From an archaeon (GTDB lineage: Archaea; Nanobdellota; Nanobdellia; Woesearchaeales; GW2011-AR9): 64,000 nucleotides of DNA. The translations under genes and the position numbers were made by a program. Below, one piece after another: positions 18,582-37,159 of the stretch. Where the stretch lies: positions 2,569 through 66,568 of the forward strand of contig JAHFSD010000002.1 in the NCBI GenBank assembly GCA_023265925.1, in the 5' to 3' direction. The notes under the pieces are model-generated. The model searched no databases, was not told the origin of the DNA, and was given only the letters and a program-made list of their open reading frames with translations. Positions within the stretch are counted from its first letter, which is position 1. The number at the start of each line of letters is the position of its first letter.

Positions 18582-18582
18582 T

Positions 18583-19725: not shown

Positions 19726-19842
19726 CTCTTTTCTTGATTATAGGGATAAGCAGGAGTAAGTAAGAGCGAGGGTTTCCGAAACGTTCCCGGGAAAAAGCAC
19801 TTTTTAAATGTTGTTAATTAAAAATCCAGGTTTACCCGACTT

Positions 19843-20964
19843 TTGCGTTTTATACCAACAGACATAAATAACCATGCCGGAATGATTTTTCTCCCGGGAA
19901 CGCAAAAATGTGACAAAAATGTGAGTTTAATAAGACTTATAAAGTCACTATCAAGTTTTAGAAGTATGCCTTTAATACCAGTTGGTAAGGGAGACTTCCG
20001 CCTCCTGCCACAATTTGCTGAGGGAGATTTTCCGGGTTATGAGTTGTATCTTCCTGAATTTGATGATAAGGTGTATAACTGTCTGGAAGCTCTTCCGGGC
20101 CATATTAAGATAATTTCTATCCATCAGCCGCCTAGTGTGCGTGTCGATGGCCAACTCCATAGGTCAAACATGGTGAACTTTGGAAGAATTGGTGAAGCAA
20201 CTGTCTTCTCTATGAAAAAAATAGTAGAATTATGCCATCAGCGGGGTATCCCTCAAGTGGTGGTTCATGGCGCTTTTTATGATTGCCGAGAGAGGGAGCA
20301 GCAGGAAGCTTTTTCATTGTTTACCAGCAGGTTGAAAAGTTTATCCCATCCAGAAGTGGAATTGTTGTGTGAAAATGATGCTTTGTGGGGACCGGATCAT
20401 TATTCAATCCACTCGCTATTATGTACCATGGAAAATTTTTTGTTGCTAAATAAGCTGATGGATGGAAAAATCAAGATAACGCTCGACATTGAACATTTTT
20501 TGATCACGCACTATTTTACTCGCTTTCTTGGTTCCATCACCGCCAGGGACACGGACTTTTATGTAGGATCTGAGGAAAGAGGAGAGCTTTTACAAAAGGA
20601 TTTTCTCTCTTTTCATGCTCCTCAGGAAAATGTGCTAAAGCAAACTTTATACAGTTCTCTTGGCCAATTCATCAGTTTCTTTAATGACCAGATTGAGATG
20701 GTGCACTTAAATGGCTCTGATTTTCATAATTTTATGTTTGATGCAGGGAAAAAGCTTCCGCTGATCGGAGAGCATTTGCCTCTGGGCTTTGACCAGGGGG
20801 GAGTTAAGGACAGGATTGATTATGGTTTATTGGTAGTGGCACTCCAGAAGCTGCCTCATCATAAAAATATCCCTCTGGTGCTGGAAGTGTGGAGAAAAGA
20901 TCCAGGGGAATTCATTGCAGAAATGCGGCGGTCAAAACAATTTTTAACAAACTATTTAAGCTAG
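19843..20964 (+). CDS. hypothetical protein, possibly xylose-isomerase-like TIM-barrel (sugar phosphate isomerase/epimerase) fold
   Basis: Weak pattern only (IISIHQPP, VVVHGAF, LDIEHF, VHLNGS). Real start may be Met at 19966. Confidence 0.3.
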   Translation: MRFIPTDINNHAGMIFLPGTQKCDKNVSLIRLIKSLSSFRSMPLIPVGKGDFRLLPQFAEGDFPGYELYLPEFDDKVYNCLEALPGHIKIISIHQPPSVRVDGQLHRSNMVNFGRIGEATVFSMKKIVELCHQRGIPQVVVHGAFYDCREREQQEAFSLFTSRLKSLSHPEVELLCENDALWGPDHYSIHSLLCTMENFLLLNKLMDGKIKITLDIEHFLITHYFTRFLGSITARDTDFYVGSEERGELLQKDFLSFHAPQENVLKQTLYSSLGQFISFFNDQIEMVHLNGSDFHNFMFDAGKKLPLIGEHLPLGFDQGGVKDRIDYGLLVVALQKLPHHKNIPLVLEVWRKDPGEFIAEMRRSKQFLTNYLS

Positions 20965-21042
20965 TTTTAACAGGCTGTTTAATTAAAAAACTGTTTAAGC
21001 AAGTCAAATGCTAACAACACATGAAAGAGGAGGTTTGAAAAT

Positions 21043-22062
21043 ATGGTCATCATTGCCGGCAGGGAAATTAAGAATTTTAGTGAACCTTTCATTATAGCTG
21101 AAGTCGGCTCTAACCATAAGGGGGATCTCGCATTAGCCAAGCACTTGATCGATAAAGCAGCGCAATGCGGTGCGGACAGCGTTAAATTCCAGGTGTGGTC
21201 TAAAAAAAGCTTATTCAGCAAGGTGGTCTTCGCCAATAGGCCGGAGCTGGAAGAACAGATTGAACGCTACTCTTTGTCTCTGCCTGATTTCAAAGAACTT
21301 AAAGAATATGGTGATGCCCGGGGAATCATGATCTCAGCTTCAGCATTCTGCAAGGAAGAAGTGGATTTTTTGGTTAGGGAGGTCAATGTAGCCTACCTTA
21401 AAGTAGCTTCGATGGATGTTACTCATCTCCCCTTCCTGGAGTATGTAGCCCAGCAGGGCAAGCCGATAGTCATGTCTACGGGGCTAGCCAGCATTGCTGA
21501 AATTGATGAAGCAGTAACTGTCATTCACCGTTATAACCGTAACTTAATACTGCTTCACTGTACCAGCTTGTATCCTCAACAGGATGAACAATCTCATCTC
21601 AATAATCTCCCATTTTTACAGGAAACCTTTAATGTTCCGGTGGGCTATTCTGACCATAGTTTAGGTATAACTATTCCATTAGGTGCTGTCGTAAAAGGAG
21701 CGTGCTTGTTAGAGAAACATTTTGCTTTAAATAATCAAGATGAGAAGATTTGGGACCAAAATTTCTCCGCCAGTCCAGAAGAATTGAAGAATTTAGTTGT
21801 GGAAAGTAAAAGGTTAGTGAGAGCTTTGGGCAACATTCGGATAACGCTGGATGCAGCCAAACTAAAACAGCGGGAAGTCATGAGGAGAAGCATAGTAACA
21901 TCGCGGCATCTGCCACAAGGACATATTTTAACTATAGAAGATCTCCTTTTCAAGCGCCCGGGAACTGGTCTGGAGCCCAAACAGGTGGCGATTGTGATTG
22001 GAAAACAACTTAAGCGTGATCTTGCACCTGATACTTTGTTAACTTGGGCCGATTTGTTGTAA
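21043..22062 (+). CDS. N-acetylneuraminate/legionaminate/pseudaminate synthase family (NeuB/LegI/PseI-like) with C-terminal SAF domain
   Basis: FIIAEVGSNHKGDLALAKHLIDKAAQCGADSVKFQ. GAGGAGG SD upstream. Confidence 0.85.
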   Translation: MVIIAGREIKNFSEPFIIAEVGSNHKGDLALAKHLIDKAAQCGADSVKFQVWSKKSLFSKVVFANRPELEEQIERYSLSLPDFKELKEYGDARGIMISASAFCKEEVDFLVREVNVAYLKVASMDVTHLPFLEYVAQQGKPIVMSTGLASIAEIDEAVTVIHRYNRNLILLHCTSLYPQQDEQSHLNNLPFLQETFNVPVGYSDHSLGITIPLGAVVKGACLLEKHFALNNQDEKIWDQNFSASPEELKNLVVESKRLVRALGNIRITLDAAKLKQREVMRRSIVTSRHLPQGHILTIEDLLFKRPGTGLEPKQVAIVIGKQLKRDLAPDTLLTWADLL

Positions 22063-22111
22063 ATAGAGTGGAGCAGTCAGTCAAATAGACAGTGAAATAG
22101 ACAGAAAGAAC

Positions 22112-22339
22112 ATGACTCCAGAAGCAATCTTATCCGAAGAGCGCGCAGCACAGCTCATTGAAAGGTGCACTGATTATCAGATAGAATCCATCCAGCTCAT
22201 TCCTGAAGGGGGTAGCCATTACAGTTTTAACTTGGTCTGCTCAGGTTACCCCCTTCAGGAACTCGGGATGGACTTCGTGATCTGTGGAGTGAAAAATTCA
22301 AGGAGTTACTCTTTAAAATCATTGTTAGTGGAACCGTAG
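22112..22339 (+). CDS. small hypothetical protein
   Basis: 75-aa ORF between neuB-like and neuA-like genes; no motif. Confidence 0.2.
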   Translation: MTPEAILSEERAAQLIERCTDYQIESIQLIPEGGSHYSFNLVCSGYPLQELGMDFVICGVKNSRSYSLKSLLVEP

Positions 22340-22487
22340 ATTACGTTCGATACGCTGATATTATCAGCGAAAAAACTAAGCAACCCAGGCGGCCATCAAT
22401 ACTTTAATAAAATGTCAATACTTTAATAAACAACGATACTAGAATCTAATCTAATATAATCTAATACAATATAATCTGATTTGAAAT

Positions 22488-23249
22488 ATGATTAACGGAA
22501 AACGAGTTTTGGCGTACATCCCCGCGCGAAGCGGCTCAAAAGGGATTAAAGATAAGAATATCATCGACCTATGCGGCAAACCGCTGATTGCCTATACCAT
22601 TGAGGCAGCAAGGCAGAGTAAATACATCGATCGGCTGATTGTTTCCACTGATTCCGCAGAGTACGCGTCCGTTGCTAGAAAATATGGGGCGGAAGTACCT
22701 TTCCTGCGTCCCGTTGAGTTAGCAACAGACACCTCTCCAGAGATGCATACGACTTTGCATCTTATGGAGTGGTTGGAAAAAGAAGGCTTGGCAGCATTTG
22801 ATATAATTATACGCCTGCAGGGGACGTCTCCCTTGCGCACGGCCAAAGATATTGACGGGGCTTTAACATTGTTTTTCCACAAAAATGCCGATACGATTAT
22901 CGGGGTCTGTGAGGCGAGAACCACCCCACTGGCGATGAATACCCTACCCGCCGATCACTCCATGCATGATTTTATTCCGGAATGGATCAAAAACAAAAAT
23001 AGGCAGGAGTTGCCTACCTATTATCAGCTTAACGGCGCCATTTTTATTGCGAACTGGAAATTTATCAGGGAACAAAAGAGTTGGTTTTCTGGAAAAAGTT
23101 ATGCTTATATCATGCCTCAAGAGCGATCCGTAGATATAGATAATCCGCTAGATTTAGAGTTTGCGAAGTTTTTGCTGGAGAACAAGTTAAAATCCAAAGA
23201 ATTTTCCACCGGTCCACAACAGGTGAGAAAATTGCCTTTGTGCGTCTGA
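22488..23249 (+). CDS. CMP-nonulosonic acid synthetase (acylneuraminate cytidylyltransferase family, NeuA/LegF/PseF-like)
   Basis: N-terminal AYIPARSGSKGIKDKNI is the CTP_transf_3 signature. Confidence 0.85.
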   Translation: MINGKRVLAYIPARSGSKGIKDKNIIDLCGKPLIAYTIEAARQSKYIDRLIVSTDSAEYASVARKYGAEVPFLRPVELATDTSPEMHTTLHLMEWLEKEGLAAFDIIIRLQGTSPLRTAKDIDGALTLFFHKNADTIIGVCEARTTPLAMNTLPADHSMHDFIPEWIKNKNRQELPTYYQLNGAIFIANWKFIREQKSWFSGKSYAYIMPQERSVDIDNPLDLEFAKFLLENKLKSKEFSTGPQQVRKLPLCV

Positions 23250-25042: not shown

Positions 25043-25135
25043 GGAACTATGTAATTATTCAGCCATCTGAAGCGTGGTGAGCATCATAACCTTAGGACGG
25101 GGGCGCTTCACGTGGCTGAATAATTACGGAACTAT
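25043..25135. mobile_element. MITE-like element: 24-bp near-perfect terminal inverted repeats (22/24) with a 29-bp spacer, flanked by 8-bp direct repeats (ggaactat)
   Basis: Arm1 25051-25074 gtaattattcagccatctgaagcg; arm2 25104-25127 cgcttcacgtggctgaataattac; DRs 25043-25050 and 25128-25135. Confidence 0.4.
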
Positions 25136-25994
25136 TTCTGTTTATCTCCTCATAAATATACCCTTCAATTTGTTGGGAAGAGTTCACTGCCCGGGGATAG
25201 GGCTCATTCAAAAAATAGTTTGGATCTTCTTTCATTTTTTTCCACAACAATTGATGCATATCCTTCTCTTCGATCACCATAACAGTCCCATCCCCCAATG
25301 TAGTCTTTTTAAGCAGGTGCTTATGTTCTTCAAAAAAAGACCTGAATTTCGATTGGTCGATTTGTGGAGTGGGCACAACCTGCCGATTGCGCACATAGAC
25401 ATCGACGGCTGCTGGTTTGCCGTCAACCGTGCCAGTAAAATTCTTGATATGACGATAGGGGACTTTTGCCTGCTCTTCAACATAATGAAATTGGGTAGTA
25501 GCAGGAACTTCTAATCCCAGCAGCATTATCTTTACTGTACTCTTCTGATGAATAAGGTCGAAGAGGCTTCCTACTCCCGAACAGTTCGTCGTGCAGGCTG
25601 ACAAATAGTAATCCTTATCTTTTCCCATCACCGCCACTGAATAAATAGGGTGACTGGACCGGACAATATTATTTCGCTGTCGAAATACTTCAGATAATAA
25701 ACCAACCTCCGATTTACTATGGATTGAATCAAAGAAACCTGTTTTGCAAAAAGACAGGGTGAAAGTGGGAACAATCAATGTTCCTTCCGAACCGATAACT
25801 GATAAGATAGCTTCAATGAAAATATTGGCAAATCCCTCTTTCGTGCATTCCCCCACGGGCCGGCCAAAAGAAAATAGGCAGGAGTGAATGAAAAGAGTAT
25901 CTCCAGAACTGATGCCGATCTCTTTAAAAGAGTTGGTAATATCGGCAAAAGTGATATTTCCATTAGTACTTTGAATAACCGCATTTTCATTCAT
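25092..25994 (-). CDS. aminoglycoside 3-N-acetyltransferase (AAC(3)/Antibiotic_NAT) family acyltransferase
   Basis: SSGDTLFIHSCLFSFGRPVGEC...GTLIVPTF matches the GDxLxxHSSLxxxG...GG core of AAC(3). The C-terminal ~16 codons lie inside the MITE-like element. Confidence 0.55.
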   Translation of the reverse strand: MNENAVIQSTNGNITFADITNSFKEIGISSGDTLFIHSCLFSFGRPVGECTKEGFANIFIEAILSVIGSEGTLIVPTFTLSFCKTGFFDSIHSKSEVGLLSEVFRQRNNIVRSSHPIYSVAVMGKDKDYYLSACTTNCSGVGSLFDLIHQKSTVKIMLLGLEVPATTQFHYVEEQAKVPYRHIKNFTGTVDGKPAAVDVYVRNRQVVPTPQIDQSKFRSFFEEHKHLLKKTTLGDGTVMVIEEKDMHQLLWKKMKEDPNYFLNEPYPRAVNSSQQIEGYIYEEINRNSSVIIQPREAPPS

Positions 25995-26223
25995 GTTTCA
26001 TTTTCATAACGAGCTTTGCTAGGGTCTCAATAGATTTAAAGCTCTCTTCGATGATATCTTCCCCTTTTATCTTCATATTGAATGTTTTTTCCAATTCGTC
26101 AACCAAATTAATGATATCAAAAGAATCTAAAAAACCAGTGGCGAAAAAGTCTTCAGTATCCGATACTTGTTCTACCTGCTTTATTCTTCTGATAATTTCC
26201 CTAATCTGCGCTGCCTCATCCAT
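25987..26223 (-). CDS. acyl/peptidyl carrier protein
   Basis: 78 aa with a GFLDSFDIINLV phosphopantetheine-attachment-like motif. Confidence 0.6.
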   Translation of the reverse strand: MDEAAQIREIIRRIKQVEQVSDTEDFFATGFLDSFDIINLVDELEKTFNMKIKGEDIIEESFKSIETLAKLVMKMKHE

Positions 26224-26731
26224 GGGTCATTCCTCGGTATTCTGATTGCAGGATATCAAAGCACATCCTATTTTGAAATCCCCCCTCTATGAAATGTGAT
26301 TCCCGCTGTATTCCCGAACGCTTAAAATTGTTTTTTTCAAGGACGCGTAACGAGGCGGCATTTTTTTCAGCTACTATCGCCTGTATGGAATGGAGCTTGA
26401 GGTCAGTGAACGCTTTCTCTAGAAGGAGATTTACCGCGATGGTCATTACGCTTTGTCCAGCATAGGACCGTTCGCCTAAAATATACCATATCATGCCGGT
26501 TTTGTCTAAATTATCAATCAAACTCAACCCCACAAATCCAATGGGCTGATCTAGATCATAAACCATACAAAAGAAATTATCACTTTTTTTCAAGATCCTG
26601 GTGTGAATGATTTGATTATATCTCTCCAAATTATACCGGGAAATCAACCACTTATTATTTTCCGGATTGTGGAACCAGCTAGCTAAAAGTTCGAAATCCG
26701 TATCTCTTACCATTTCAAGTCGAATATTCAT
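26216..26731 (-). CDS. GNAT-family N-acetyltransferase (PseH-like candidate)
   Basis: 171-aa RimL/GNAT-like sequence; position in a nonulosonic acid cluster. Confidence 0.6.
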   Translation of the reverse strand: MNIRLEMVRDTDFELLASWFHNPENNKWLISRYNLERYNQIIHTRILKKSDNFFCMVYDLDQPIGFVGLSLIDNLDKTGMIWYILGERSYAGQSVMTIAVNLLLEKAFTDLKLHSIQAIVAEKNAASLRVLEKNNFKRSGIQRESHFIEGGFQNRMCFDILQSEYRGMTHG

Positions 26732-26820
26732 CTTTCAAGGAAATCTTATCTTTTTTTTCTGTATTCGTTCTCACTAAAGCATTTCTCGGCAAGGCATTTT
26801 TAAATATTATGGTTTAGGAA

Positions 26821-27351
26821 TCAAGGAACCACTTGGAAATCGTACGCCACCCCTATTCTCAATGCGGGAGTTTTTTTTAAGAAGCAATCATAATATCCCT
26901 TACCAAAGCCAACCCTATCCCCCAAAAGATCGAATCCAATACCGGGAATCAAAGCGAGGTCTATGATGACCGGTTCAATGAGTGGACAGGTTGAAACTGG
27001 TTCCTTGATTCCATAACTTCCTTTTATTAAATCACTGATTCCATTTGTTACTTGGGTAACAACCATTGCTCCTGTTTCAGGGTTCACTTTTGGGAAAGCG
27101 ACCCGCTTACTTTCATGAAGGGCATTCTGGGCAATGGCATGAAGGTCTACTTCTTTATCAAATGGGGCGTAACAGAGAATGGTTTTTGCACTGGCATATT
27201 CCGGTAGAGCGAGAATGCGCTTAGAGATTAATTTACTTTTATGGAGGACTTCTTCATTGCTAAGATGCTGATGCCAAAATCGAAGTTCCCGCCGAAGCTC
27301 TGCTTTATTGTGCGCGTTCATGTTTTCAAAGCTAATTTTTTCATTCATCAT
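26821..27351 (-). CDS. 5-formyltetrahydrofolate cyclo-ligase (MTHFS) family
   Basis: ILCYAPFDKEVDL ... GFDLLGDRVGFGKGYYD. Confidence 0.7.
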   Translation of the reverse strand: MMNEKISFENMNAHNKAELRRELRFWHQHLSNEEVLHKSKLISKRILALPEYASAKTILCYAPFDKEVDLHAIAQNALHESKRVAFPKVNPETGAMVVTQVTNGISDLIKGSYGIKEPVSTCPLIEPVIIDLALIPGIGFDLLGDRVGFGKGYYDCFLKKTPALRIGVAYDFQVVP

Positions 27352-28277
27352 TCATTCACAATAATTCCTATCTTTATCTTGTATTGTTCAATAAACTGCG
27401 AAAGCGAAATCCATTCTTGTTTTTCATTTCTGAGTTTTTCTAATGAGATTTGAGCATCATTTACCTGAATGATAATCTGTTCTCCATCTGCGTGGATTAC
27501 TTTCCCCCAGTTGTTTTCTGCAGGTATTTTCTCTGCCCTTCTTATCTGATCGATATAGAAATTTCTGTTATTGATGGTTGACGATGGTCGAATGAGCATG
27601 TTTTCCAGAGGATCAAAGTTAAGTCCTCGAATAAAATTATATATCTTCCCGCTCTCCCAGCGGTAAGACACTACTCCGTTATTGGGGGTGTCTTTTTTTT
27701 TATAGATTGTCCGTTCCGCTTTATTTTGCGGTGTGCCGGTTAGGCGCTGGTCTGTCACTATTGGGAGTACTTCCTTAAATGTATCAATACCATACTTGAT
27801 ACATTTCATAATGAGTTGCAGTGCGGTTTCGTGCTCGCCAATGGGAAATCTTCTTTGGGTGATAATATTTCCGCTGTCCACTCCGCAATCTACATAATGC
27901 CAGGTTATCCCATGTTCTGTTTCACCGTTCACAATCGCCCAGCTGCATACGTTTAGCCCGGCGTATTTTGGCAAAGGCCCATTGTGAAAATTGATGACTC
28001 CTAGGGGAGGGATATTTATAATTTCTTCTTTTAGCAACTGAAAGTTGTTTATGCTGAAAATAATGTCTGGTTTCAGTTCTTTTATCTTATTTGCTATTTC
28101 GTTAATGTTCTTCGTTTCTAGGGGGTGCATTGATTCCGGCACTTTGATGAGGGATTTGCCGATTAGGTTGCTTGCCGGTTCAGTTACAAATCCGATAATC
28201 TCCTGGCTGGCCTGGGCAATCTGTGCGCAATCAATGGCTACTTTCCCATTACCTATTATTAAAATTCGTTTTTTCAT
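27348..28277 (-). CDS. formyltransferase (Fmt/ArnA-N-like; probable sugar N-formyltransferase)
   Basis: INFHNGPLPKYAGLNVCSWAIVNGETEHGITWHYVDCGVDSGNII (Formyl_trans_N) plus a C-terminal domain. Confidence 0.8.
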   Translation of the reverse strand: MKKRILIIGNGKVAIDCAQIAQASQEIIGFVTEPASNLIGKSLIKVPESMHPLETKNINEIANKIKELKPDIIFSINNFQLLKEEIINIPPLGVINFHNGPLPKYAGLNVCSWAIVNGETEHGITWHYVDCGVDSGNIITQRRFPIGEHETALQLIMKCIKYGIDTFKEVLPIVTDQRLTGTPQNKAERTIYKKKDTPNNGVVSYRWESGKIYNFIRGLNFDPLENMLIRPSSTINNRNFYIDQIRRAEKIPAENNWGKVIHADGEQIIIQVNDAQISLEKLRNEKQEWISLSQFIEQYKIKIGIIVNE

Positions 28278-29886
28278 AATCTTCGTTTACTTTCATTCGG
28301 TCTATCTTTCCCGTCGTGGTTCGGGGAAGTTTTTCTACGATTTTAATCTCAGGAATCATATATTTTGGGAGCAGTGTGCTGAGCTCTTCCTGTATTTGCG
28401 CATGGTCCATACTCTTGCTCAGGGCAACGTAGGCAACGAGTTTTCCCGCTTCATGGATTTTTGAGAAAATGACGATGGCCTCTCGTACTGTTGGAAGGGA
28501 CTGCAAGGCTGCTTCAATCTCACCAAGTTCGATCCGATGGCCCATATATTTTATCTGATGGTCTTTTCTCCCCTTAAATAAGTAATTTCCATCTTCCTGA
28601 AGCTGCACCAGATCGCCACTCCAATAGACTTTATCATTCAGATTTGAAAACAAAGGATTCTTAACAAAATGCTCTTCCGTTTTTTGTTGATTATTCCAGT
28701 AGCCTGGACTGACACTCAATCCCCTCACATACAGCTCCCCTAGTTCCCCTACCCCGGCGATAGTCCCGTCCTCTTTTAAAGCAAAAACTTCCAGATGATC
28801 ACAAGCTTTTCCAATGGGAATATTCAAACTCAAATCGGTGGGGACTTTATCAATAATATAATAAGTACATTCCACCGTTGTTTCCGTAGGCCCAAACATA
28901 TTCACAAAAGTCTTTTGAGGAAAGAGGTTCATCCATTGCGCTAGAAACGGAGTAGGAAAAACCTCTCCGGTCGGAATAATGAGCCTTAATTGTGGTATCC
29001 TGGTGGGATTCAGGATATCCACTTTGGCGATGTACGTTAGGATACTGGGAACAGACATCCACACAGAAATCTCTTTCTGCTCCATAAATTGAACCAATCT
29101 TTCCGGAAAGGAATTCAATTCTGGCGGCACGAGAACCAATCGGGCCCCAGATTTAAATGTGGAGTACATATCAAAAGTGGAAAGGTCAAAGTGCATGGGG
29201 GCATGATTGGAAAGTATATCCTCCCTGGCGATGTGGAATTTAGGGACCACCCATTCAATAAAACTGATCACATTAGCATGGGTGATCATTACTCCTTTTG
29301 GTTTTCCCGTTGACCCGGAGGTATAGATTATGTATGCGAGATCGGATCCTTTATTTTCAAAGGGACGGGGTGTTTCTGGCTGTTGTAGCACTGCTTCTTC
29401 GGTGTATAGTTCCCCTTGGTGCTCTTTTTGGTATCTTTTCGTGTTAAAGTCCTGGGGCGAAAGAACAATTAGTTTAGGGAGGGGAGAATCGCCGTTTCTT
29501 CTCTGGAGTATGGAAAGAGTATGATCTAGAGTAGCAGTGTCACAGAGTACGACTGCTGGTGAGCAGTCTTCTACTATTTGTTGCAGTCTTTCAGGGGGGG
29601 AATGGGGATCTAGGGGAACGTAGCAACAATCAGCTTTCAATATCCCCAGGACAGATTTTATGGAATGGAGGGATTTATGGAGACAGAAAGCGATTCGACT
29701 GTTTTGCTGTATTCCAATATGAATAAGAAAGTGGGCAAGCTTATTACTGTAAGCATGCAATTCTGTATAGGTAATATTTTCCTCTTTGAAATTGACCGCA
29801 ACCTGGTTAGGGAATAGTTGTGCTGACTTCATAAAATATTCTTGAATTAAACGTACCATCTTACCTACTCCTGAAAGCCAGAGCAA
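28249..29886 (-). CDS. AMP-dependent synthetase/ligase (adenylation enzyme, DltA/acyl-ACP-ligase-like)
   Basis: IIYTSGSTGKPKGVMITHANV (A3 core), YGPTETT, GELGELYVRG. Confidence 0.8.
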   Translation of the reverse strand: MLWLSGVGKMVRLIQEYFMKSAQLFPNQVAVNFKEENITYTELHAYSNKLAHFLIHIGIQQNSRIAFCLHKSLHSIKSVLGILKADCCYVPLDPHSPPERLQQIVEDCSPAVVLCDTATLDHTLSILQRRNGDSPLPKLIVLSPQDFNTKRYQKEHQGELYTEEAVLQQPETPRPFENKGSDLAYIIYTSGSTGKPKGVMITHANVISFIEWVVPKFHIAREDILSNHAPMHFDLSTFDMYSTFKSGARLVLVPPELNSFPERLVQFMEQKEISVWMSVPSILTYIAKVDILNPTRIPQLRLIIPTGEVFPTPFLAQWMNLFPQKTFVNMFGPTETTVECTYYIIDKVPTDLSLNIPIGKACDHLEVFALKEDGTIAGVGELGELYVRGLSVSPGYWNNQQKTEEHFVKNPLFSNLNDKVYWSGDLVQLQEDGNYLFKGRKDHQIKYMGHRIELGEIEAALQSLPTVREAIVIFSKIHEAGKLVAYVALSKSMDHAQIQEELSTLLPKYMIPEIKIVEKLPRTTTGKIDRMKVNEDYEKTNFNNR

Positions 29887-30253
29887 AAGCCAAGGCTTTA
29901 TCTTTATCGTGAGACAAACTTATTTTTAGACAAAATTTCTCACTTTTTGTAGCGATTAGATTTACATAAGGTATTCCTTTTTTATCGTTATATATCTCAA
30001 TAGTATTTAAAGGTAGCTTAGTTGTGCCCAATACACTTAAAGCTTTTAGTACAGCTTCTTTTGCGGTAAATCTGACCGCCAGGTGTTGTGCCGGGTATTT
30101 TTTAGCAAAACAATACGAAAGCTCTTTTGGGGTGTAGATTCTTTGAAGAAAAGTCTTATCATGAGTCAAGTTCAGCTTCTGAAATCGCTGCAGGGATTCA
30201 ATATCAACGCCAACACCAACTTCCGGCATAAAACCAAGATTTTTATTTTTCAT
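29861..30253 (-). CDS. 4'-phosphopantetheinyl transferase (AcpS-type)
   Basis: VGVDIESL and SLSHDKDKALAFALA motifs; 130 aa. Confidence 0.65.
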   Translation of the reverse strand: MKNKNLGFMPEVGVGVDIESLQRFQKLNLTHDKTFLQRIYTPKELSYCFAKKYPAQHLAVRFTAKEAVLKALSVLGTTKLPLNTIEIYNDKKGIPYVNLIATKSEKFCLKISLSHDKDKALAFALAFRSR

Positions 30254-31822: not shown

Positions 31823-32866
31823 TTATCGTCTTGCCGTTAGGGATGAATAAACGTGTTCATACTTCTGTAGGAACAGGAGGTGGGAAAAGTATTTCTCCGC
31901 CGTTTTCCGGCAATTTTGCTGATAGGAATGATAATGCTGTTGTAATTCTTTAATAGCTCTGGCCAGATCTTCAGGGGTAGGTTCAAACACCACACCACAT
32001 TTTTCATTTTTCACTATTTCAGCCATTTCAGTCTTGGTGGAAACCAGCAGGGGCTTTCCGGCCGCGAGACTTTCAATCGCCGAATTGGGAATAAGCTTCA
32101 GATAATTATCATATCGGGTATAGGGGATGATGGTGCAGTGGGTCAAGGCATATTGGTCATTCATTGGGGAACGAATACCCTGATGGCACTGGACATTCTC
32201 CAGCGCGTGCTGCTGAATTTCCCGTTGGATCTTGTCGTAGGCTCCTTTCCGCCACAGTAGCAGAAACTGTAGTTGTTTAGCTCCTTCCGCACAGTTCAGC
32301 AGCAGATAAATTCCCCGTTTGGCAAAATCTTCTGCTCTGGTCGGGCAGCTGGCATTGAGGATGGTGAACGGTCCGGTAGCAGATGTGTAGATAAAAGTTG
32401 CCAGATCAACTGGGGGATAAATAATTTCTATTTTCTCCAGGGAAATTCCCAGCGAAACTAACTCCTGCTGCTGTCGTTGTGATTCAACGATAATTTTTCT
32501 CAGCTGGGAAAGATATTTCATTCTTTTTTGTATCTTGGCCAGATGACAAGAAGCAGCAGCCGTCAGGATGGTGCGCCGCAAGTCCAGTACCGGCAGATAG
32601 GGGAAGTCGCCCAGTGAGGTATAAATATGGTTTAGATCACTGTTTCTGCTGAGCAGATAGGTCGAGGGCAGCAGCAGGGGATAATAGGCAAAGTGAAACG
32701 AACGGAGCGCTGAACTGAATTTTGTCGTCAACAGTCCATCGAGGTGAAGGTCATGAACTTTAACGGTATTATTCTGCGAAAAATGGTTTGCTAACAACTG
32801 CACTTCTTTAGAGACAGCTTCATACTCAGGACGATACCGCTGGACATAATAGGTTATTTTTTTCAT
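31823..32866 (-). CDS. GT-B fold glycosyltransferase / PseG-like candidate
   Basis: C-terminal LAAGKPLLVSTKTEMAEIV resembles the GT1 donor-binding region. Start set to MKKITYY to avoid overlap. Confidence 0.45.
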   Translation of the reverse strand: MKKITYYVQRYRPEYEAVSKEVQLLANHFSQNNTVKVHDLHLDGLLTTKFSSALRSFHFAYYPLLLPSTYLLSRNSDLNHIYTSLGDFPYLPVLDLRRTILTAAASCHLAKIQKRMKYLSQLRKIIVESQRQQQELVSLGISLEKIEIIYPPVDLATFIYTSATGPFTILNASCPTRAEDFAKRGIYLLLNCAEGAKQLQFLLLWRKGAYDKIQREIQQHALENVQCHQGIRSPMNDQYALTHCTIIPYTRYDNYLKLIPNSAIESLAAGKPLLVSTKTEMAEIVKNEKCGVVFEPTPEDLARAIKELQQHYHSYQQNCRKTAEKYFSHLLFLQKYEHVYSSLTARR

Positions 32867-32870
32867 AGGG

Positions 32871-33626
32871 TTATTTTTTCTGACAAAGCACCAGCCATTC
32901 ATAAGGGTTCTCAGATGGAAACTGTTCGAGAGAGTGTATCAATCGCTGTGCAGTCTTTTTGAATCCCAATAATTTTAAAGGGCGGGAAAAGAAAGCCTGG
33001 CTCCAGAAATGGTTAAGCAGGGGATATAGTTTCACAACCCGAAAACCATTTTTCTCCAGTTCTTTAATCAATTCTTCTCTTTGATAGAGTTGGTCATAGA
33101 CGATATAACGCTTCCTTCCCAGCACACACCGTAATGGTGAAACTATTTTTTTATTCATGGCTTCAAAAACAAGATATCCCCCGGGGCGTAAAGAACTAGT
33201 CGCTTGTCGATAGATCTTTTCCCGCTCTGGTTCCTGGAAGTGCAGCAGAAAACGAATACAGAACACCAGATCATATTCTGCCTTCAGGTCCAGGTTCTGG
33301 TTTAGGTTCAGGATATCTCCCTGCACAAAATTCCATTTCTTGCCGGCGTGCTGCATTCTCTTTTGCGCAAGGGCTAACATGCTTGCGCTCGAATCAATGC
33401 TGGTTCCTCCTGCTGTGGCTAATTCTGCGGTAACACGAGCGGGACCAGGAGCAAATTCCAGTATTTTCCGGCAGTTTTGTTCCCGAATGATCTGATTGAG
33501 TACCGCCACCTGCCGTTGATGTTCAATGACATTCAAAGGCTCGCTAAAACGTTTTCTGATATATTTCTCAGCGACGTCTTCCTGTTGATAATATCGCCGT
33601 ACTTCAGCGGAAGTCGTGACCTTCAT
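32871..33626 (-). CDS. class I SAM-dependent methyltransferase
   Basis: KILEFAPGPARVTAELA (motif I) and LRPGGYLVF (motif III-like). Confidence 0.7.
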   Translation of the reverse strand: MKVTTSAEVRRYYQQEDVAEKYIRKRFSEPLNVIEHQRQVAVLNQIIREQNCRKILEFAPGPARVTAELATAGGTSIDSSASMLALAQKRMQHAGKKWNFVQGDILNLNQNLDLKAEYDLVFCIRFLLHFQEPEREKIYRQATSSLRPGGYLVFEAMNKKIVSPLRCVLGRKRYIVYDQLYQREELIKELEKNGFRVVKLYPLLNHFWSQAFFSRPLKLLGFKKTAQRLIHSLEQFPSENPYEWLVLCQKK

Positions 33627-34858
33627 CGCGCGGCCTCATAGCGTTTTTGCAGTTGAGAGCTAACAACGGTAGGGGTATATTGATGAAGGGATTCTCGTCT
33701 TAGCCCAAAATAATTCCGACAATTTTTTTGGCAGGTTTGGAGAGCCTGATGCCAAGCTTCTACGTCTCCAGGAGCAACCAGCACACTCCCCAAAGGCATT
33801 ACCTCCGGAATCGCCCCAATCTTCGACGCCATCACCATTTTCCCCGCCGCCATTGCTTCCAGCGGAATCCGGCCAAATGGTTCCGGCCAAAGTGAGGGAT
33901 AGGCAACAATGTCGGCAGCGGCATACAGCTCTGGAACCTGCTCATAGGAAACCAGCGGATGAATTTCCGCATCCAGTCCATTCTGCACGATCATATCCTG
34001 CAGTTGTTCTTTCAGCACCCCGTCGCCATACAAGTCGCAGTGGCAATCCAGTCCTTTCAGCGCCTGCAGGAGAATCTGCGGCCCTTTGGATTCGATCAGG
34101 GCGCCCAGATAGAGTATTTTCAACTTTTGATTTTTCTCTCTTTTTTGATTTTTTTCTTTCCTGACAGAAGAGAATTTATCTGCTTCAATAATATTGGGGA
34201 TAACAGTCTGGCTCTGAAAACGATGCTGTGCTAATAAATTCTGAACATACCTGCTGATGGAAATCAGCTGGCAATGTCCAAGAGCCTTATTCAAGCGCCG
34301 GTAGTACCAATATATATACAGCAATAGTGGCAGGTTATATTTCAGATACCACTTATTTTTCATCTTGCCAATTTCCGGTGAATGTGCCTGACAAGGCAGA
34401 AACTTAGCTACAGAGCAGACTACTTTACATTCTTCCTTCCCGCGATACCAGCGGTCGCCCTTGGGACAGAGCGCCGGATAACTTTCAATCGTGGCAAACA
34501 AAGGCTTGTGGAGATGTTTTAATTTTGGGGCGGCAATCACGCTGGTTCCCTGGAAATGAATCAGGTCAATGGTGGTTTCCTTAGTCAATTTCCACACTTC
34601 CCGCACAATGGAGCTAGGGAAGAGCAGGCGGCGTTGAATGTTGCTGAGAAATCCAGAAGGGGTTACTCCTGTTTTCAGCCGGCGGTAGATCTTCACTCCT
34701 TCTTTTTCTTCATATCGTTCCAGACCGGGGAAGAACGAGGTCAAGACGAGTACTTTTTGGCCCTGTGCTGCCAGTCCTTTGGCTATTGAAGCCAGGTTTA
34801 TTTCCCCTCCGCCCAGGACTTTGGGTGGGTAATATTCGGAGATGAACAGGATGTTCAT
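33623..34858 (-). CDS. glycosyltransferase family 1 (GT4-like) with Cys-rich insertion
   Basis: YPSLWPEPFGRIPLEAMAAGKMVMAS; insert CPKGDRWYRGKEECKVVCSVAKFLPC. Confidence 0.8.
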   Translation of the reverse strand: MNILFISEYYPPKVLGGGEINLASIAKGLAAQGQKVLVLTSFFPGLERYEEKEGVKIYRRLKTGVTPSGFLSNIQRRLLFPSSIVREVWKLTKETTIDLIHFQGTSVIAAPKLKHLHKPLFATIESYPALCPKGDRWYRGKEECKVVCSVAKFLPCQAHSPEIGKMKNKWYLKYNLPLLLYIYWYYRRLNKALGHCQLISISRYVQNLLAQHRFQSQTVIPNIIEADKFSSVRKEKNQKREKNQKLKILYLGALIESKGPQILLQALKGLDCHCDLYGDGVLKEQLQDMIVQNGLDAEIHPLVSYEQVPELYAAADIVAYPSLWPEPFGRIPLEAMAAGKMVMASKIGAIPEVMPLGSVLVAPGDVEAWHQALQTCQKNCRNYFGLRRESLHQYTPTVVSSQLQKRYEAAR

Positions 34859-34891
34859 AGTTTAAATCGCTTAAAAGTAGGTATATAATAG

Positions 34892-36070
34892 TTATGGTCG
34901 AGTATTCTGGTGGTGATTCTTCTGGTCAAGAAGCTTCTGATAGATTCCTAAATACTGCCAAATGCTTTCTTTCCATTCAAACTTTTTTCGCGGCTGGTGA
35001 AGAAATTCCTTCCTAGCTATCTTCACCACCTTCTCTGCCAAATCCCGTACATCTTTACTTCGAAACACCTGATATTTCCCCCCCACAATTTCCGGCAGAG
35101 AACCGGCATCGCTGACCACCAGCGGCTTGTTCATGGCCAGCGCTTCCACGGCAGTATAGCCAAAGCCTTCGGCAAGGGAAGGAACAACGATACAATCTGC
35201 TGCCTGCACGTAATTCCGTAATTCTTCGTACGGTTGGGAATCCAGCAGCTGAATCTGCTCCTGCTTAATTTGATGGGAAAGAGTAAGCTCCTGAATCAAC
35301 CAACGTAATTCCCGATATTTTTGTGGATATTTCTCCCTTGAGCCGAGCATCAGCAGCAGCACGGAATCAGGAATCTGCTGGGCAATCAACGGAACCGCTT
35401 TAATCAGGTATTCAAAGCCCTTGGACGGCCCCGGCCGGCCCCAGGAAAAATAGGCAAATTTATGGTAGAGGTTATGCCGCTTCTTAATATCTTTAACGAC
35501 AGCAGCCTTGACTTTCTTTGGATTCCAGAATTCATAATCCAGCCCATTGTAGATGACCTCTACTTTTTCTGGCGCTATTTCCTGCCGAAGTAAATCGTCT
35601 TTAGTTGCCTGAGATACACAGATATACTGATCAAACGGCAGGCGGTAAATCAACCCTTCGAGAAATTCATGGAGGGCACTTTTCCAGCGAGGAAAGCCAG
35701 TAATTTCCCGCCACTTCCCCTGCCAGGCTTCATGTACCGTCAGGACAACCGGTTTTCCGGCAAGTTTGGCTGCCAGCCAAGCCGGAAAAGCGCCGTTAAA
35801 GGTGGTGGTTTGGATGAGATCATGTTTTCGGGCCAGGCGGATGGCGGCCGGGATAGAAAAAAAAGTGAAGAGGTAGCGGGAACTAAACGAAAGGATTCGT
35901 CGGACGGTAACTCCCCCAATCACGTCACTCCTGGCCGTTCCTTTCAGCCAATGGGTAAGAACGGTAGCAGCATGTCCTTCTTTCACCGATCCCTCGGCCA
36001 GGTTCTTAAACAGCACTTCGGCGCCGCCATAATGGGGGTGATAATTCTCGCAGACAAACAGAATTCTCAT
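34892..36070 (-). CDS. glycosyltransferase family 1 (GT4-like)
   Basis: VVPSLAEGFGYTAVEALAMNKPLVVSDAGSLPEIV. Confidence 0.8.
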   Translation of the reverse strand: MRILFVCENYHPHYGGAEVLFKNLAEGSVKEGHAATVLTHWLKGTARSDVIGGVTVRRILSFSSRYLFTFFSIPAAIRLARKHDLIQTTTFNGAFPAWLAAKLAGKPVVLTVHEAWQGKWREITGFPRWKSALHEFLEGLIYRLPFDQYICVSQATKDDLLRQEIAPEKVEVIYNGLDYEFWNPKKVKAAVVKDIKKRHNLYHKFAYFSWGRPGPSKGFEYLIKAVPLIAQQIPDSVLLLMLGSREKYPQKYRELRWLIQELTLSHQIKQEQIQLLDSQPYEELRNYVQAADCIVVPSLAEGFGYTAVEALAMNKPLVVSDAGSLPEIVGGKYQVFRSKDVRDLAEKVVKIARKEFLHQPRKKFEWKESIWQYLGIYQKLLDQKNHHQNTRP

Positions 36071-37097: not shown

Positions 37098-37159
37098 AGG
37101 AATCACACGGCGGAAAATTGCTTTATAAAAATTGTGGAAGTATTCCTGTTTCCGGCCCC

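Follow-up and report, generated by a model that had tools for sequence, protein, structure and literature searches.

A cluster of seven minus-strand genes (25092-30253) in a Woesearchaeota-like DPANN archaeon is best explained as a self-contained, carrier-dependent system that N-(formyl)aminoacylates an amino sugar, the likeliest acceptor being the nonulosonic acid of the neighbouring NeuB and CMP-transferase genes, displayed on an AglB N-glycan; we give this proposal about an even chance of being correct. In the proposed pathway an AcpS-type phosphopantetheinyl transferase would prime Ser34 of a 78-aa DltC-like carrier, onto which a DltA-like adenylation enzyme would load, as a thioester, a small Ser- or Ala-sized amino acid with a free α-amine. 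A formyltransferase, acting as the free-standing counterpart of an NRPS F domain, would then N-formylate the carrier-bound aminoacyl group using N10-formyl-THF, and an AAC(3)-fold enzyme would take the formyl-aminoacyl group off the phosphopantetheine arm and place it on a free amine of a nucleotide-activated sugar. A 5-formyl-THF cyclo-ligase may help to maintain the formyl-folate pool, while a GNAT enzyme would use acetyl-CoA to acetylate another amine. The sequences show which genes are present, the families they belong to, that catalytic and attachment residues are intact, that synteny is conserved and that domains are fused; from this we infer each step of the chemistry, whether formylation or transfer comes first, which amino acid is used and which acceptor receives it.

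Organization of the operon and its surroundings

Gene calling and a Pfam search identified seven ORFs in the module interval. Pfam families were scored against the gathering score, and NCBIfam (TIGR) models against their own cut-offs.

29861..30253, minus strand: AcpS-type 4'-phosphopantetheinyl transferase (PPTase), 130 aa; PF01648 (ACPS) and TIGR00516
28249..29859, minus strand: DltA-like stand-alone amino-acid adenylation enzyme (A domain), 536 aa from ATG; PF00501, PF13193 and TIGR01733
27348..28277, minus strand: Fmt/ArnA-type N10-formyl-THF-dependent formyltransferase (FT) with a C-terminal domain, 309 aa; PF00551 and PF02911
26821..27351, minus strand: 5-formyl-THF cyclo-ligase (MTHFS), 176 aa; PF01812 and TIGR02727
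26216..26731, minus strand: GNAT (Acetyltransf_3) N-acetyltransferase, 171 aa; PF13302 and PF00583
25987..26223, minus strand: DltC-like peptidyl/acyl carrier protein, 78 aa; PF00550
25092..25994, minus strand: AAC(3)-fold (Antibiotic_NAT) acyltransferase, 300 aa; PF02522

Starting from a TTG codon, the A-domain ORF would reach 29886. Adjacent genes share 4-29 nt or are separated by 1 nt, with a single 89-nt gap as the exception, and so the seven look like one operon; the carrier gene shares 8 nt with the GNAT gene on one side and 8 nt with the AAC(3)-like gene on the other. The first-pass annotation had described five consecutive genes. These are on the minus strand at the limits claimed, and each exceeds the gathering score of the Pfam family expected for it, but the count was wrong, as the FT and MTHFS genes, placed between the adenylating-enzyme and GNAT genes, had been missed.

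Pfam searches of the window (the whole 64,000-nucleotide stretch of DNA analysed) placed the following genes around the operon.

11247..12974, minus strand: sialyltransferase-like/Epimerase_2-like GT-B protein, 575 aa; PF07388 (1.1e-7) and PF02350 (3.6e-5)
17196..23249, mixed strands: whole block of nonulosonic-acid pathway genes, comprising the next five
17196-18581, minus strand: CBS-dehydratase/epimerase
18583-19725, minus strand: DegT aminotransferase
19843-20964, plus strand: TIM-barrel protein
21043-22062, plus strand: NeuB
22488-23249, plus strand: CMP-sugar cytidylyltransferase
31823..40294, minus strand: glycosyltransferase run with three GT4-type and one GT2 enzymes, a methyltransferase, a DUF2304 protein and AglB/STT3
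37160-40294, minus strand: oligosaccharyltransferase AglB/STT3

The co-directional glycosyltransferase/AglB run puts the module inside a protein N-glycosylation cluster. Three DegT aminotransferases are encoded in the cluster, and no DUF4910 gene was found in the window; the acceptor amine would therefore have to come directly from an aminotransferase step. Orthologues of the GT-B protein directly adjoin related cassettes in loci L001, L007 and L011 (phmmer E 1e-70 to 1e-73), making it a candidate for the enzyme that transfers the modified sugar.

It seems very improbable that the module instead produces a small formyl-aminoacyl metabolite or has a lipid or protein as its target. One FT relative does occur in a PKS/NRPS cluster, and the sugar acceptor is itself a prediction, but the operon is embedded between nonulosonic-acid genes and glycosyltransferase/AglB genes, most related cassettes are flanked by nonulosonic-acid or sugar genes, and the clade of the AAC(3)-like protein includes fusions to sugar-type C-methyltransferases and DUF4910.

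A conserved core recurs in independent loci

Four genes, those for the A domain, FT, carrier and AAC(3)-like protein, form a core that recurs, closely coupled, in at least six further independent loci. The same gene order, with overlapping genes, is present in the window and in L001-L006, L007, L008, L011 (partial) and L016, while L015 contains the same core with the carrier and AAC(3)-like protein fused. As this order recurs in independent metagenomic loci whose cassette proteins display only 36-71% identity, the core is not a chance juxtaposition. In six loci the FT gene is flanked by the A-domain and carrier genes and overlaps them. NeuB and/or CTP_transf_3 (CMP-transferase) genes flank the cassette in L007, L008, L015 and L016, and lie a few genes away in the window; NeuB was not found within the stretch of DNA covered in L001 and L011.

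Adjacency of the carrier and AAC(3)-like genes is universal among the cassettes, in contrast to the GNAT, which is encoded near the cassette in L007 and L008 and absent from L001, L011 and L016. The GNAT is thus an accessory gene outside the conserved core. The MTHFS gene was seen only at the window locus and is absent from the related cassettes; a PPTase orthologue adjoins the cassette in L007.

Predicted carrier priming and amino-acid activation

The PPTase (PF01648, 66.7 bits; TIGR00516 acpS, 70.3 bits against a cut-off of 59.8) is the enzyme expected to turn the apo-carrier into holo-carrier. The carrier (PF00550, 36.5 bits) retains the phosphopantetheine attachment serine, Ser34, in the motif GFLDSFD (codon 26122-26124), and the G-x-x-DS-(F/L) motif is kept across 15 aligned carriers.

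The A domain matched PF00501 (267.8 bits), PF13193 (35.1 bits) and the amino-acid adenylation model TIGR01733 (382 bits against a cut-off of 317), and scored 316-336 bits against DltA models, under their cut-offs. NRPS A domains and DltA head its list of PDB matches. The equivalents of Asp235 (codon 29185-29187) and Lys517 (codon 28306-28308) are kept which, together with the TIGR01733 score, points to an α-amino acid as the acyl group. Asp235 is also kept in nine of ten FT-linked A domains, the exception being the AMP-binding protein of L013, consistent with an amino acid activated with its amine free. The specificity code, DLFMITMVEK, is identical in L001 and L007 despite protein identities of 60-71%. 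It matched no verifiable specificity code, agreeing at only three to four positions with that for Ser (DVWHFSLVDK) or that of DltA (DLMTMCTVAK). The pocket is of the amino-acid type, not one that predicts a fatty acid, and the substrate is most likely a small, Ser- or Ala-sized α-amino acid.

The first-pass annotation had envisaged a non-acetyl acyl group, for example alanyl, hydroxybutyryl or glyceroyl, delivered from the carrier. Alanyl is within the range of our prediction. Activation of a non-amino acyl group such as 3-hydroxybutyryl or glyceroyl by an acyl-AMP ligase has some precedent in related AAC(3)-like loci, which contain FkbH with a methyltransferase (L009) or MaoC fusions, and in a Magnetovibrio Maf island whose AMP-ligases are without Asp235. 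At the present locus such a group is highly unlikely, as the ligase clears the threshold for amino-acid adenylation, has both Asp235 and Lys517 in place, and comes with an FT, which needs an amine.

The formyltransferase travels with the carrier and its loading enzyme

The FT (PF00551, 79.9 bits; PF02911, 26.3 bits) retains the Asn96/His98/Asp134 triad, which is kept in 98-100% of 54 family members; no biochemically characterized member of its clade was found in the literature. The closest PDB entries are the ArnA formyltransferase (1.7e-23), followed by perosamine formyltransferase, WlaRD and Fmt, whereas the F domain of LgrA scored only 4e-5. In sequence, therefore, the enzyme is much nearer to sugar N-formyltransferases (ArnA, perosamine FT and WlaRD) than to the LgrA F domain. 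Direct N-formylation of nonulosonic-acid amines is also known, with PseJ (in the PDB) and the CMP-nonulosonic acids of Kuenenia as examples.

NRPS F domains formylate aminoacyl-S-carrier substrates. Among 12 independent FT neighbourhoods, window included, which were chosen for long contigs and are not a random sample, a carrier and an aminoacyl-loading enzyme stand 0-3 genes from the FT (relatives 36-45% identical) in every case. The final transferase, by contrast, varies: it is AAC(3)-like in seven loci, a DltB-like MBOAT in two (L017 and L018) and a hexapeptide transferase in two (L014 and L019), while the last (L013) is a PKS/NRPS context. As the carrier and loader always adjoin the FT while the final transferase varies, we infer that the FT acts on the aminoacyl-S-carrier, in the manner of NRPS F domains. 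Since the FT belongs to the conserved core, the group transferred is predicted to be formyl-aminoacyl. In L019 and L013 the loader beside the FT is not an A domain but an aaRS-like amino-acid:[carrier-protein] ligase (best PDB matches 4H2W/3MEY, 1.4e-21), an enzyme type described previously (PMC5370406).

Two other roles for the FT were considered. The A domain, carrier and AAC(3)-like protein could add an unformylated aminoacyl group, with the FT acting as a PseJ/ArnA-like sugar N-formyltransferase on another amine of the same nucleotide sugar. All of the best PDB matches of the FT are indeed sugar N-formyltransferases, N-formyl nonulosonic acids exist and have been tied to deacetylase and FT gene pairs, and the three DegT aminotransferases would put several amines on offer. 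We regard this pair of separate decorations as unlikely, however, because it leaves unexplained both the coupling of FT, carrier and loader in dlt-like MBOAT loci, in hexapeptide-transferase loci and in one PKS/NRPS locus free of nonulosonic-acid genes, and the position of the FT gene between, and overlapping, the A-domain and carrier genes in six loci. Alternatively, the AAC(3)-like protein could transfer the free aminoacyl group, whose new α-amine the FT would then formylate on the nucleotide sugar, giving the same final product. This order accords with the resemblance of the FT to enzymes working on nucleotide-sugar amines, and modification of CMP-nonulosonic acids at the nucleotide-sugar level is documented. 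In the dlt-like loci, however, the last transfer should take place outside the cytoplasm, beyond the reach of formyl-THF, and formylation there would thus precede transfer. If all members of the FT clade share one type of substrate, this favours a carrier-bound intermediate, although the argument is one from parsimony only. We consider transfer before formylation to be quite unlikely.

The MTHFS, which probably supplies or recycles the formyl-folate cofactor, matched TIGR02727 (136 bits against a cut-off of 85) and PF01812 (118 bits, profile positions 1-168 of 186), so that the last ∼18 profile positions are missing from the protein.

A likely transferase with the AAC(3) fold

The AAC(3)-like protein matched PF02522 (109.9 bits), whereas all NCBIfam AAC(3) resistance models scored far under their cut-offs; its best PDB match is AAC(3)-IVa (5.7e-12). 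The H170/E173 ‘HYVEE' motif does not vary among 15 relatives. The enzyme is predicted to move the carrier-bound (formyl)aminoacyl group onto a sugar amine, although the literature yielded no biochemically characterized member of its clade, which comprises ∼1,700 clusters at 50% identity (E≤1e-30). Members occur as fusions with, or next to, DUF4910, carrier, Maf and NeuB genes. Carrier-AAC(3) (PP-binding plus Antibiotic_NAT) fusions occur in L015, P0302, P0214, P0233 and P0278, P0225 is an AAC(3)-DUF4910-ACPS fusion, and other fusions in the clade involve MaoC, DUF4910 or sugar-type C-methyltransferases; in the Magnetovibrio Maf island, too, carrier-AAC(3) gene pairs recur. Fusion of the transferase to carrier, DUF4910 and AcpS domains points to a carrier-tethered acyl donor. 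The carrier-AAC(3) fusions and conserved overlapping gene pairs identify the AAC(3)-like protein as the likely transferase, and support the original suggestion of carrier-protein-dependent N-acylation in a nonulosonic-acid/N-glycan cluster.

Of the two N-acyltransferase candidates put forward initially, the GNAT (PF13302, 74.5 bits; PF00583, 43.3 bits) is less persuasive. It scored only 39.9 bits against the PseH model TIGR03585 (cut-off 93), its PDB matches are AAC(6'), SpeG and PseH (5e-5), and it is probably an ordinary acetyl-CoA-dependent N-acetyltransferase acting on a sugar or aminoacyl amine. The roles could in principle be exchanged, with a SbzI-type GNAT using the carrier and the AAC(3)-like protein acting as a plain acetyl-CoA N-acetyltransferase: the GNAT and carrier genes do overlap in the window, and SbzI is reported to be a carrier-dependent GNAT (PMC11685415). 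Such an exchange is most improbable, given the cassettes of L001, L011 and L016 that lack a GNAT, the universal carrier-AAC(3) adjacency, and the existence of carrier-AAC(3) and AAC(3)-ACPS fusions.

Comparison with known systems

An AAC(3)-family enzyme in a glycan context had been flagged as unusual, a view that is contradicted by the size of the clade and its links to NeuB, Maf, DUF4910 and carrier genes. The clade also includes Cj1296/7, an annotated aminoglycoside N3'-acetyltransferase of the Campylobacter jejuni flagellin glycosylation locus (PMC3025981), and the Cj1295/Cj1296-7 locus has been linked to non-acetyl N5-acyl pseudaminic acid (PMC3068675, PMC3025981). A group of the type predicted here, N-formyl-L-alanyl, has been reported alongside amino sugars in the O2 O-antigen of V. 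anguillarum (PMC10059132).

Gene content and surroundings of the operon

ORF reading combined with Pfam and NCBIfam searches placed seven open reading frames on the minus strand between 25092 and 30253. In transcription order these are:

29861-30253, minus strand: AcpS-type phosphopantetheinyl transferase (PPTase), first (TIGR00516, 70 bits against a cut-off of 60)
28249-29886, minus strand, likely ATG start at 29859: amino-acid adenylation enzyme (A domain), second (TIGR01733, 382 against 317 bits)
27348-28277, minus strand: Fmt/ArnA-type formyltransferase (FT) with both N- and C-terminal domains, third (Pfam/NCBIfam)
26821-27351, minus strand: 5-formyl-THF cyclo-ligase (MTHFS), fourth (Pfam/NCBIfam)
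26216-26731, minus strand: GNAT of the Acetyltransf_3 type, fifth (Pfam/NCBIfam)
25987-26223, minus strand: PP-binding carrier of 78 aa, sixth (Pfam)
25092-25994, minus strand: Antibiotic_NAT/AAC(3)-fold protein, seventh (Pfam)

The first-pass annotation had described five consecutive genes here as a carrier-dependent module for non-acetyl acylation. The five genes are real and their boundaries correct, but they are not consecutive, the FT and MTHFS genes between them having been overlooked. Neighbouring genes overlap by 4-29 nt or lie 1 nt apart, with the single exception of an 89-nt gap preceding the GNAT gene, and the G+C content of the operon (0.41) is below the window mean (0.46). Counts from a sigma-70 promoter and terminator scan were at the level of shuffled sequence; the model is bacterial and not applicable to an archaeon.

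Upstream of the operon are genes for a CBS-dehydratase, a DegT aminotransferase, NeuB and a CMP-sugar cytidylyltransferase, while four glycosyltransferases, a methyltransferase and an STT3/AglB oligosaccharyltransferase of 1,044 aa follow downstream on the same strand. The window encodes an archaeal-type ribosomal protein L3, and all named relatives at 60-72% identity derive from Woesearchaeota, Nanoarchaeia or Nanoarchaeota MAGs. Together with the flanking genes, these data show that the module belongs to an N-glycosylation and nonulosonic acid (NulO) cluster of a DPANN archaeon.

Other genes of the region merit description in their own right. Directly upstream of the PPTase gene, 30395-31819 (minus strand) encodes a 474-aa protein with a C-terminal dTMP-kinase-like P-loop domain and an unassigned N-terminal half; a weak homologue lies near the corresponding genes in L011, one of the metagenomic loci carrying relatives of window proteins (L001-L019). 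A HAD phosphatase at 24258-24981 (minus strand) is divided between two ORFs that do not share a frame, one of 79 aa with DxDG (LFDLDGV) and one of 158 aa that matches the remainder of HAD_2. Public gene calls split it likewise, and it represents a frameshift, a pseudogene or an assembly error. The AglB/STT3 protein (37160-40294, minus strand) ends in a PPIase domain of the parvulin type (PF13616/PF00639, residues ~943-1041), an arrangement that would couple N-glycosylation to prolyl isomerization in one chain. Adjoining the glycosylation cluster, 40366-44143 (minus strand) contains ATP-citrate-lyase-type genes (Citrate_bind/ATP-grasp and CoA-ligase/citrate-synthase) and an SDR gene; in L001, from a related Woesearchaeota, genes for fumarase, a fumarate reductase/succinate dehydrogenase flavoprotein and malate dehydrogenase lie beside the relatives of the operon. 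The glycan cluster also encodes two B12-binding radical-SAM enzymes and a ferredoxin fused to PterinBD-DUF4346 (669-2846, plus strand; 13827-15620, minus strand; 13218-13802, plus strand), which may perform C-methylation or other radical chemistry on sugars. Finally, 3210-6163 (minus strand) encodes a 667-aa fusion in which an APH-type kinase domain is joined to the N-terminal (TPP) domain of transketolase; the transketolase Pyr/C-terminal subunit comes next, as a protein of its own. These genes adjoin two more DegT aminotransferases, and the fusion and subunit suggest a pathway to two-carbon branched or extended sugars.

The carrier and its adenylation enzyme

The carrier matches PF00550 at 36.5 bits (gathering threshold 20.8) and is of the phosphopantetheine-binding type, with a predicted attachment site at Ser34. 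This residue, within GFLDSFD, aligns with the attachment Ser of 14 other carriers from related loci; the conserved Ser on which the first-pass reading of an acyl carrier protein depended is therefore present. Scores against the DltC equivalogs remained below the cut-offs (NF003464, 27.8 against 68 bits; TIGR01688, 17.5 against 52.35 bits). The PPTase, at 130 aa within the expected length of ~120-130, exceeded both AcpS-type thresholds (TIGR00516, 70.3 against 59.8 bits; TIGR00556, 86.2 against 45.35 bits).

The second enzyme is a member of the amino-acid adenylation family (TIGR01733, 382.3 bits against a cut-off of 317.4; PF00501, 267.8 bits) and contains the core motifs A3 (YTSGSTGKPKG), A4 (FDLS), A5 (NMFGPTE) and A10 (GKIDR). 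Alignment to GrsA, using a reference sequence that reproduced the published code DAWTIAAICK as a check, yielded the ten-residue specificity code DLFMITMVEK, in which Asp235 and Lys517 (GrsA numbering) are retained. These residues bind the α-amino and carboxylate groups of amino-acid substrates, and their retention points to an α-amino acid with an unblocked amine as substrate, rather than to a fatty or hydroxy acid. The ‘AMP-ligase' of the first-pass annotation is thus an adenylating enzyme, although more exactly one of amino-acid type, and its pocket does not resemble that of a ligase for an unrelated fatty acid.

The DltA equivalog thresholds were not reached (TIGR01734, 315.9 against 559.85 bits; NF003417, 336.5 against 476 bits). 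The window code shares D235, L236, V330 and K517 with the Bacillus subtilis DltA code, DLMTMCTVAK (DltA sequence confirmed by PDB 3E7W), but has Thr at 301 and Glu at 331, where DltA has Cys and Ala. A hydroxyl residue at 301 and an acidic residue at 331 are also found in the Ser code DVWHFSLVDK (PMC3795760), although the His278 of that code is missing in the window. Naming an amino acid from the ten residues gave no convincing match, the Ser code showing three identities and ~5 conservative positions and the DltA code four identities. The code is identical in the window, L001 and L007 despite protein identities of just 60% and 71%. The activated amino acid is predicted to be small, Ser- or Ala-sized.

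The formyltransferase, MTHFS and GNAT

FT belongs to the Formyl_trans_N/C (GART/Fmt/ArnA) superfamily (PF00551, 79.9 against 26.1 bits; PF02911, 26.3 against 21.1 bits). Its triad is strongly conserved, N96 and H98 being present in 100%, and D134 in 98%, of 54 homologues. The score against the Fmt model was well below the cut-off (TIGR00460, 105.5 against 201.5 bits); archaea are not known to use fMet initiation. Among PDB entries the best matches were ArnA (1.7e-23), a perosamine formyltransferase, WlaRD and Fmt (1.4e-18), while the F domain of LgrA was detected at just 4e-5. Taken alone, the sequence of FT, nearest to sugar N-formyltransferases and Fmt and far from the LgrA F domain, would suggest direct formylation of a sugar amine. 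Gene neighbourhoods disfavour this view, as a carrier and an aminoacyl loader are always found near FT. This was apparent on the contigs of seven further FT relatives (36-43% identity), a non-random set picked for long surrounding sequence.

Genomic context of seven further FT relatives
L015, L016: AAC(3) cassette with the FT relative
L017, L018: dlt-like, with MBOAT, a 385-aa protein, an 83-aa PP-binding carrier, a DltA-like A domain, then FT
L014: A domain, carrier, radical-SAM enzyme, hexapeptide transferase, FT
L019: hexapeptide transferase, FT, carrier, aaRS-like protein
L013: PKS/NRPS locus with an aaRS-like ligase as in L019, carriers, an AMP-binding enzyme and the FT relative

Counting the window, this non-random sample comprises 12 independent loci; in each of them no more than a few genes separate FT from a carrier and from an enzyme producing aminoacyl-S-carrier, whereas the exit transferase is not always of one type. 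The aaRS-like protein of L019 has amino-acid:[acyl-carrier-protein] ligases as its best PDB matches (1.4e-21). Asp235, in the FDLS motif, is kept in 9 of 10 FT-linked A domains, the exception being the AMP-binding protein of L013, consistent with activation of an amino acid with a free amine. At the MBOAT loci the final transfer is expected to occur outside the cytoplasm, where formyl-folate is not available. The invariant co-location with carriers and loaders, the variety of exit enzymes and the expected extracytoplasmic transfer by MBOATs make it the most economical reading that the FT clade formylates aminoacyl-S-carrier, as a trans-acting analogue of the F domains of NRPSs.

The dlt-like operons (L017, 2671-7945; L018, 2645-7855), which also contain a small ORF and in which the MBOAT is DltB-like and FT of the same clade, lie inside polysaccharide clusters and imply an N-formyl-aminoacyl ester decoration. 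In L019 (3047-6116) and L013 (5761-8942) the FT clade adjoins SerRS-like amino-acid:[carrier-protein] ligases and small carriers, which could point to one way in which the aminoacyl-carriers made by these ligases are consumed.

The MTHFS matches TIGR02727 at 136.2 bits (cut-off 84.9), with profile coverage extending just over positions 1-168 of 186, ~18 short of the end. Reading the 89-nt spacer in every frame revealed no continuation of the protein, whether in-frame or frameshifted. GNAT falls below the PseH threshold (TIGR03585, 39.9 against 93.1 bits), matches PseH in the PDB at just 5e-5 and is, on its profile matches, of the Acetyltransf_3 type with no closer assignment.

The AAC(3)-like enzyme

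The last protein of the operon has the Antibiotic_NAT fold (PF02522, 109.9 against 25 bits) and aligns over its whole length with AAC(3)-IVa (PDB match, 5.7e-12). Its H170-x-x-E173 aligns with the H..E of the TLHLAE motif in AAC(3)-IVa and is invariant in 15 relatives; both residues have a putative catalytic role. All NCBIfam models of AAC(3) resistance enzymes scored far below their cut-offs, the best being AAC_3_IV (74.5 against 420 bits) and AAC_3 (60.4 against 270 bits). An exhaustive profile search recovered 8,150 representative clusters at E<=1e-3 and 1,709 at E<=1e-30.

Pfam analysis of 20 long proteins from the best 150 representatives revealed fusions of PP-binding and Antibiotic_NAT domains (P0302, P0214, P0233 and P0278), and an 812-aa protein, P0225, that combines Antibiotic_NAT with DUF4910/DUF2172, HTH_47 and ACPS. 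Antibiotic_NAT was also found joined to DUF4910 or to a sugar-type C-methyltransferase, and to a MaoC dehydratase in P0204 and P0236, an arrangement that would fit 3-hydroxyacyl donors. A carrier domain (AAGILDSFD) likewise begins the 341-aa AAC(3)-like protein of L015. A Maf flagellin-glycosylation island in a Magnetovibrio MAG (L012, 150-16771) encodes three AAC(3)-like paralogues, two of which have a carrier gene directly adjacent, together with two AMP-ligases without Asp235, a class-I/II aminotransferase, a PhyH dioxygenase and DUF4910; this island is likely a hotspot of NulO N-acyl diversity. A more distant AAC(3)-like relative, in L009, lies beside FkbH, a methyltransferase and DUF4910. 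The carrier-AAC(3) and ACPS fusions, together with the adjacent carrier genes, argue for acyl-S-carrier, rather than acetyl-CoA, as the predicted donor of the AAC(3)-like enzyme.

Far from being unusual, as had been supposed at first pass, an AAC(3)-family enzyme in a glycan context is recurrent, as seen in the fusions, the Maf island and the gene content of Campylobacter jejuni and Clostridium acetobutylicum. Searches of open-access papers yielded no description of a carrier-dependent Antibiotic_NAT enzyme. Butirosin BtrH was considered as a precedent and set aside, since its fold is papain-like and differs from that of AAC(3).

Recurrence of the cassette

Gene content was read on the contigs that encode the retrieved relatives of the AAC(3)-like protein; a search of GTDB genomes with a 9-sequence AAC(3) profile found two loci. 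The conserved core of A domain, FT, carrier and AAC(3)-like protein, hereafter the cassette, occurs in this order with overlapping genes in the window, L001-L006, L007, L008, L011 and L016. Searches of open-access papers yielded no description of such a cassette.

Loci carrying the cassette
L001-L006: Woesearchaeota contig family, cassette order
L007: cassette with AcpS, GNAT and adjacent NeuB
L008: cassette with CMP-transferase, class-III aminotransferase, DUF4910 and GNAT
L011: Nanoarchaeia MAG, cassette cut by the contig end
L016: cassette with DUF4910 and a CTP_transf_3-aminotransferase fusion
L015: marine contig, in many samples; A / AAC(3) / FT inside a NeuB-DegT-CMP-transferase cluster

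The sialyltransferase-like GT-B protein orthologous to that at 11247-12974 is the immediate neighbour of the cassette in L001, L007 and L011. Genes for NeuB and/or a CMP-transferase flank five of seven cassettes, and the acceptor is therefore most likely NulO or its 4-amino hexose precursor. In L001, L008 and L016 a DUF4910 gene adjoins the cassette. The window contained no homologue of the DUF4910 (tblastn), class-III aminotransferase or carbamoyltransferase proteins of related loci; given the absence of DUF4910, the acceptor amine is probably aminotransferase-made (the future N7) and not a de-acetylated N5.

Proposed pathway

In the pathway that we propose, the PPTase would prime the carrier, onto which the A domain would load a small amino acid. 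FT would then formylate the carrier-bound amino acid, with MTHFS feeding the formyl-folate pool, and the AAC(3)-fold enzyme would pass the formyl-aminoacyl group to the sugar amine; GNAT would carry out ordinary acetylation. Such a product class is chemically plausible, since in the Vibrio anguillarum O2 antigen an N-formyl-L-alanyl group is reported to accompany the amino sugars (PMC10059132).

It is possible, at somewhat less than even chances for the two parts of the proposal taken jointly, that FT is a free-standing, trans-acting formyltransferase for aminoacyl-S-carrier that forms, with a DltA- or aaRS-like loader and a small carrier, a hitherto unrecognized supply unit for formyl-aminoacyl carriers, and that bacteria and archaea plug this same unit into AAC(3)-fold (NulO), DltB-like MBOAT and hexapeptide exit enzymes, whereby cell-surface glycans gain N-formyl amino acids. 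If so, a donor type, acyl-S-carrier, would be assigned to ~1,700 AAC(3)-like clusters, including Cj1296/7 of C. jejuni. The pathway, if correct, would provide a concrete biosynthetic route to N-formyl-aminoacyl groups on surface sugars and would mean that NRPS-style formylation on a carrier works outside peptide synthesis. It would also define a carrier-dependent branch of the AAC(3) fold, bearing on the origin of that fold and on the phase-variable Cj1296/7, and an unusual N-glycan decoration for DPANN archaea, whose cell-surface chemistry is, to our knowledge, little studied. As the proteins of the module are small and soluble, reconstitution in vitro is realistic.

Comparison with known systems

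The module resembles the Dlt system (DltA, DltC and AcpS) in its stand-alone adenylation enzyme with FDLS, its ~78-aa carrier with the LDSF Ser and its AcpS-type PPTase, and DltA models are the second-best NCBIfam matches of the A domain. In contrast to Dlt, the window has neither DltB (MBOAT) nor DltD, and the equivalog cut-offs are not reached (DltA, 316 against 560 bits; DltC, 27.8 against 68 bits). It has instead a cytoplasmic AAC(3)-fold transferase, an added FT and an archaeal host, and its predicted target is a sugar amine, whereas that of Dlt is a teichoic-acid hydroxyl. True dlt-like loci with FT occur elsewhere (L017 and L018).

With the F-A-PCP module of LgrA the window would share the logic of adenylation, loading onto a PCP and N-formylation on the carrier with formyl-THF. 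In the PDB the window A domain matches those of LgrA best, and the LgrA F domain is a detectable homologue of FT. Formylglycyl starters of the oxazolomycin type are a further example of NRPS initiation with formylation. Unlike in LgrA, the window activities reside on three separate proteins, there is no condensation domain, exit to a sugar amine would be through the AAC(3)-fold enzyme, and FT, which has an Fmt-type C-terminal domain, resembles ArnA and Fmt more closely than it does the F domain. Sugar N-formyltransferases (the ArnA N-terminal domain, WbkC-type perosamine formyltransferase, WlaRD and PseJ) are the best structural relatives of FT and share the N/H/D triad and formyl-THF chemistry, but the FT clade is genomically tied to carriers and aminoacyl loaders and not to sugar aminotransferases alone.

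SerRS-like amino-acid:[carrier-protein] ligases such as Bll0957 make Gly- or Ala-S-carrier (PMC5370406, citing Mocibob et al. 2010). They provide aminoacyl-S-carrier outside NRPSs, and their homologues stand in for the A domain beside FT in L019 and L013, although the loader fold differs, the window using an A domain.

In C. jejuni and C. acetobutylicum, too, a NulO glycosylation locus combines an AAC(3)-like gene with genes for acyl carrier proteins. In C. jejuni, Cj1295 (DUF4910) is needed for the di-O-methylglyceroyl group on N5 of pseudaminic acid (PMC3068675), and Cj1296/7, in the flagellin glycosylation locus, is annotated as an aminoglycoside N3'-acetyltransferase (PMC3025981); the CA_C2195-2199 neighbourhood of C. 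acetobutylicum includes acpA and aminosugar N-acetyltransferases (PMC4000134). These loci differ from the window in being bacterial, in serving O-linked flagellin glycosylation, in an acyl group that is di-O-methylglyceroyl and not an amino acid, and in having neither an amino-acid-type A domain nor FT. Conversely, the window has the AAC(3)-like gene, the carrier and the NulO genes of a Cj1295/Cj1296-type locus but is devoid of DUF4910 throughout. AAC(3) acetyltransferases, YokD and FrbF belong to the same Pfam family as the window enzyme (109.9 bits), which aligns whole-length with AAC(3)-IVa, H-x-x-E included. They differ in that the predicted donor in the window is a carrier thioester, not acetyl-CoA, and the context glycan biosynthesis, not resistance.

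The kind of system, carrier-dependent acylation of amino sugars, is already known; of interest here are the conserved FT and the size of the unassigned AAC(3)-like clade. The module is a combination of Dlt-like loading, NRPS-like formylation on separate proteins and an AAC(3)-fold exit in an archaeal N-glycan cluster.
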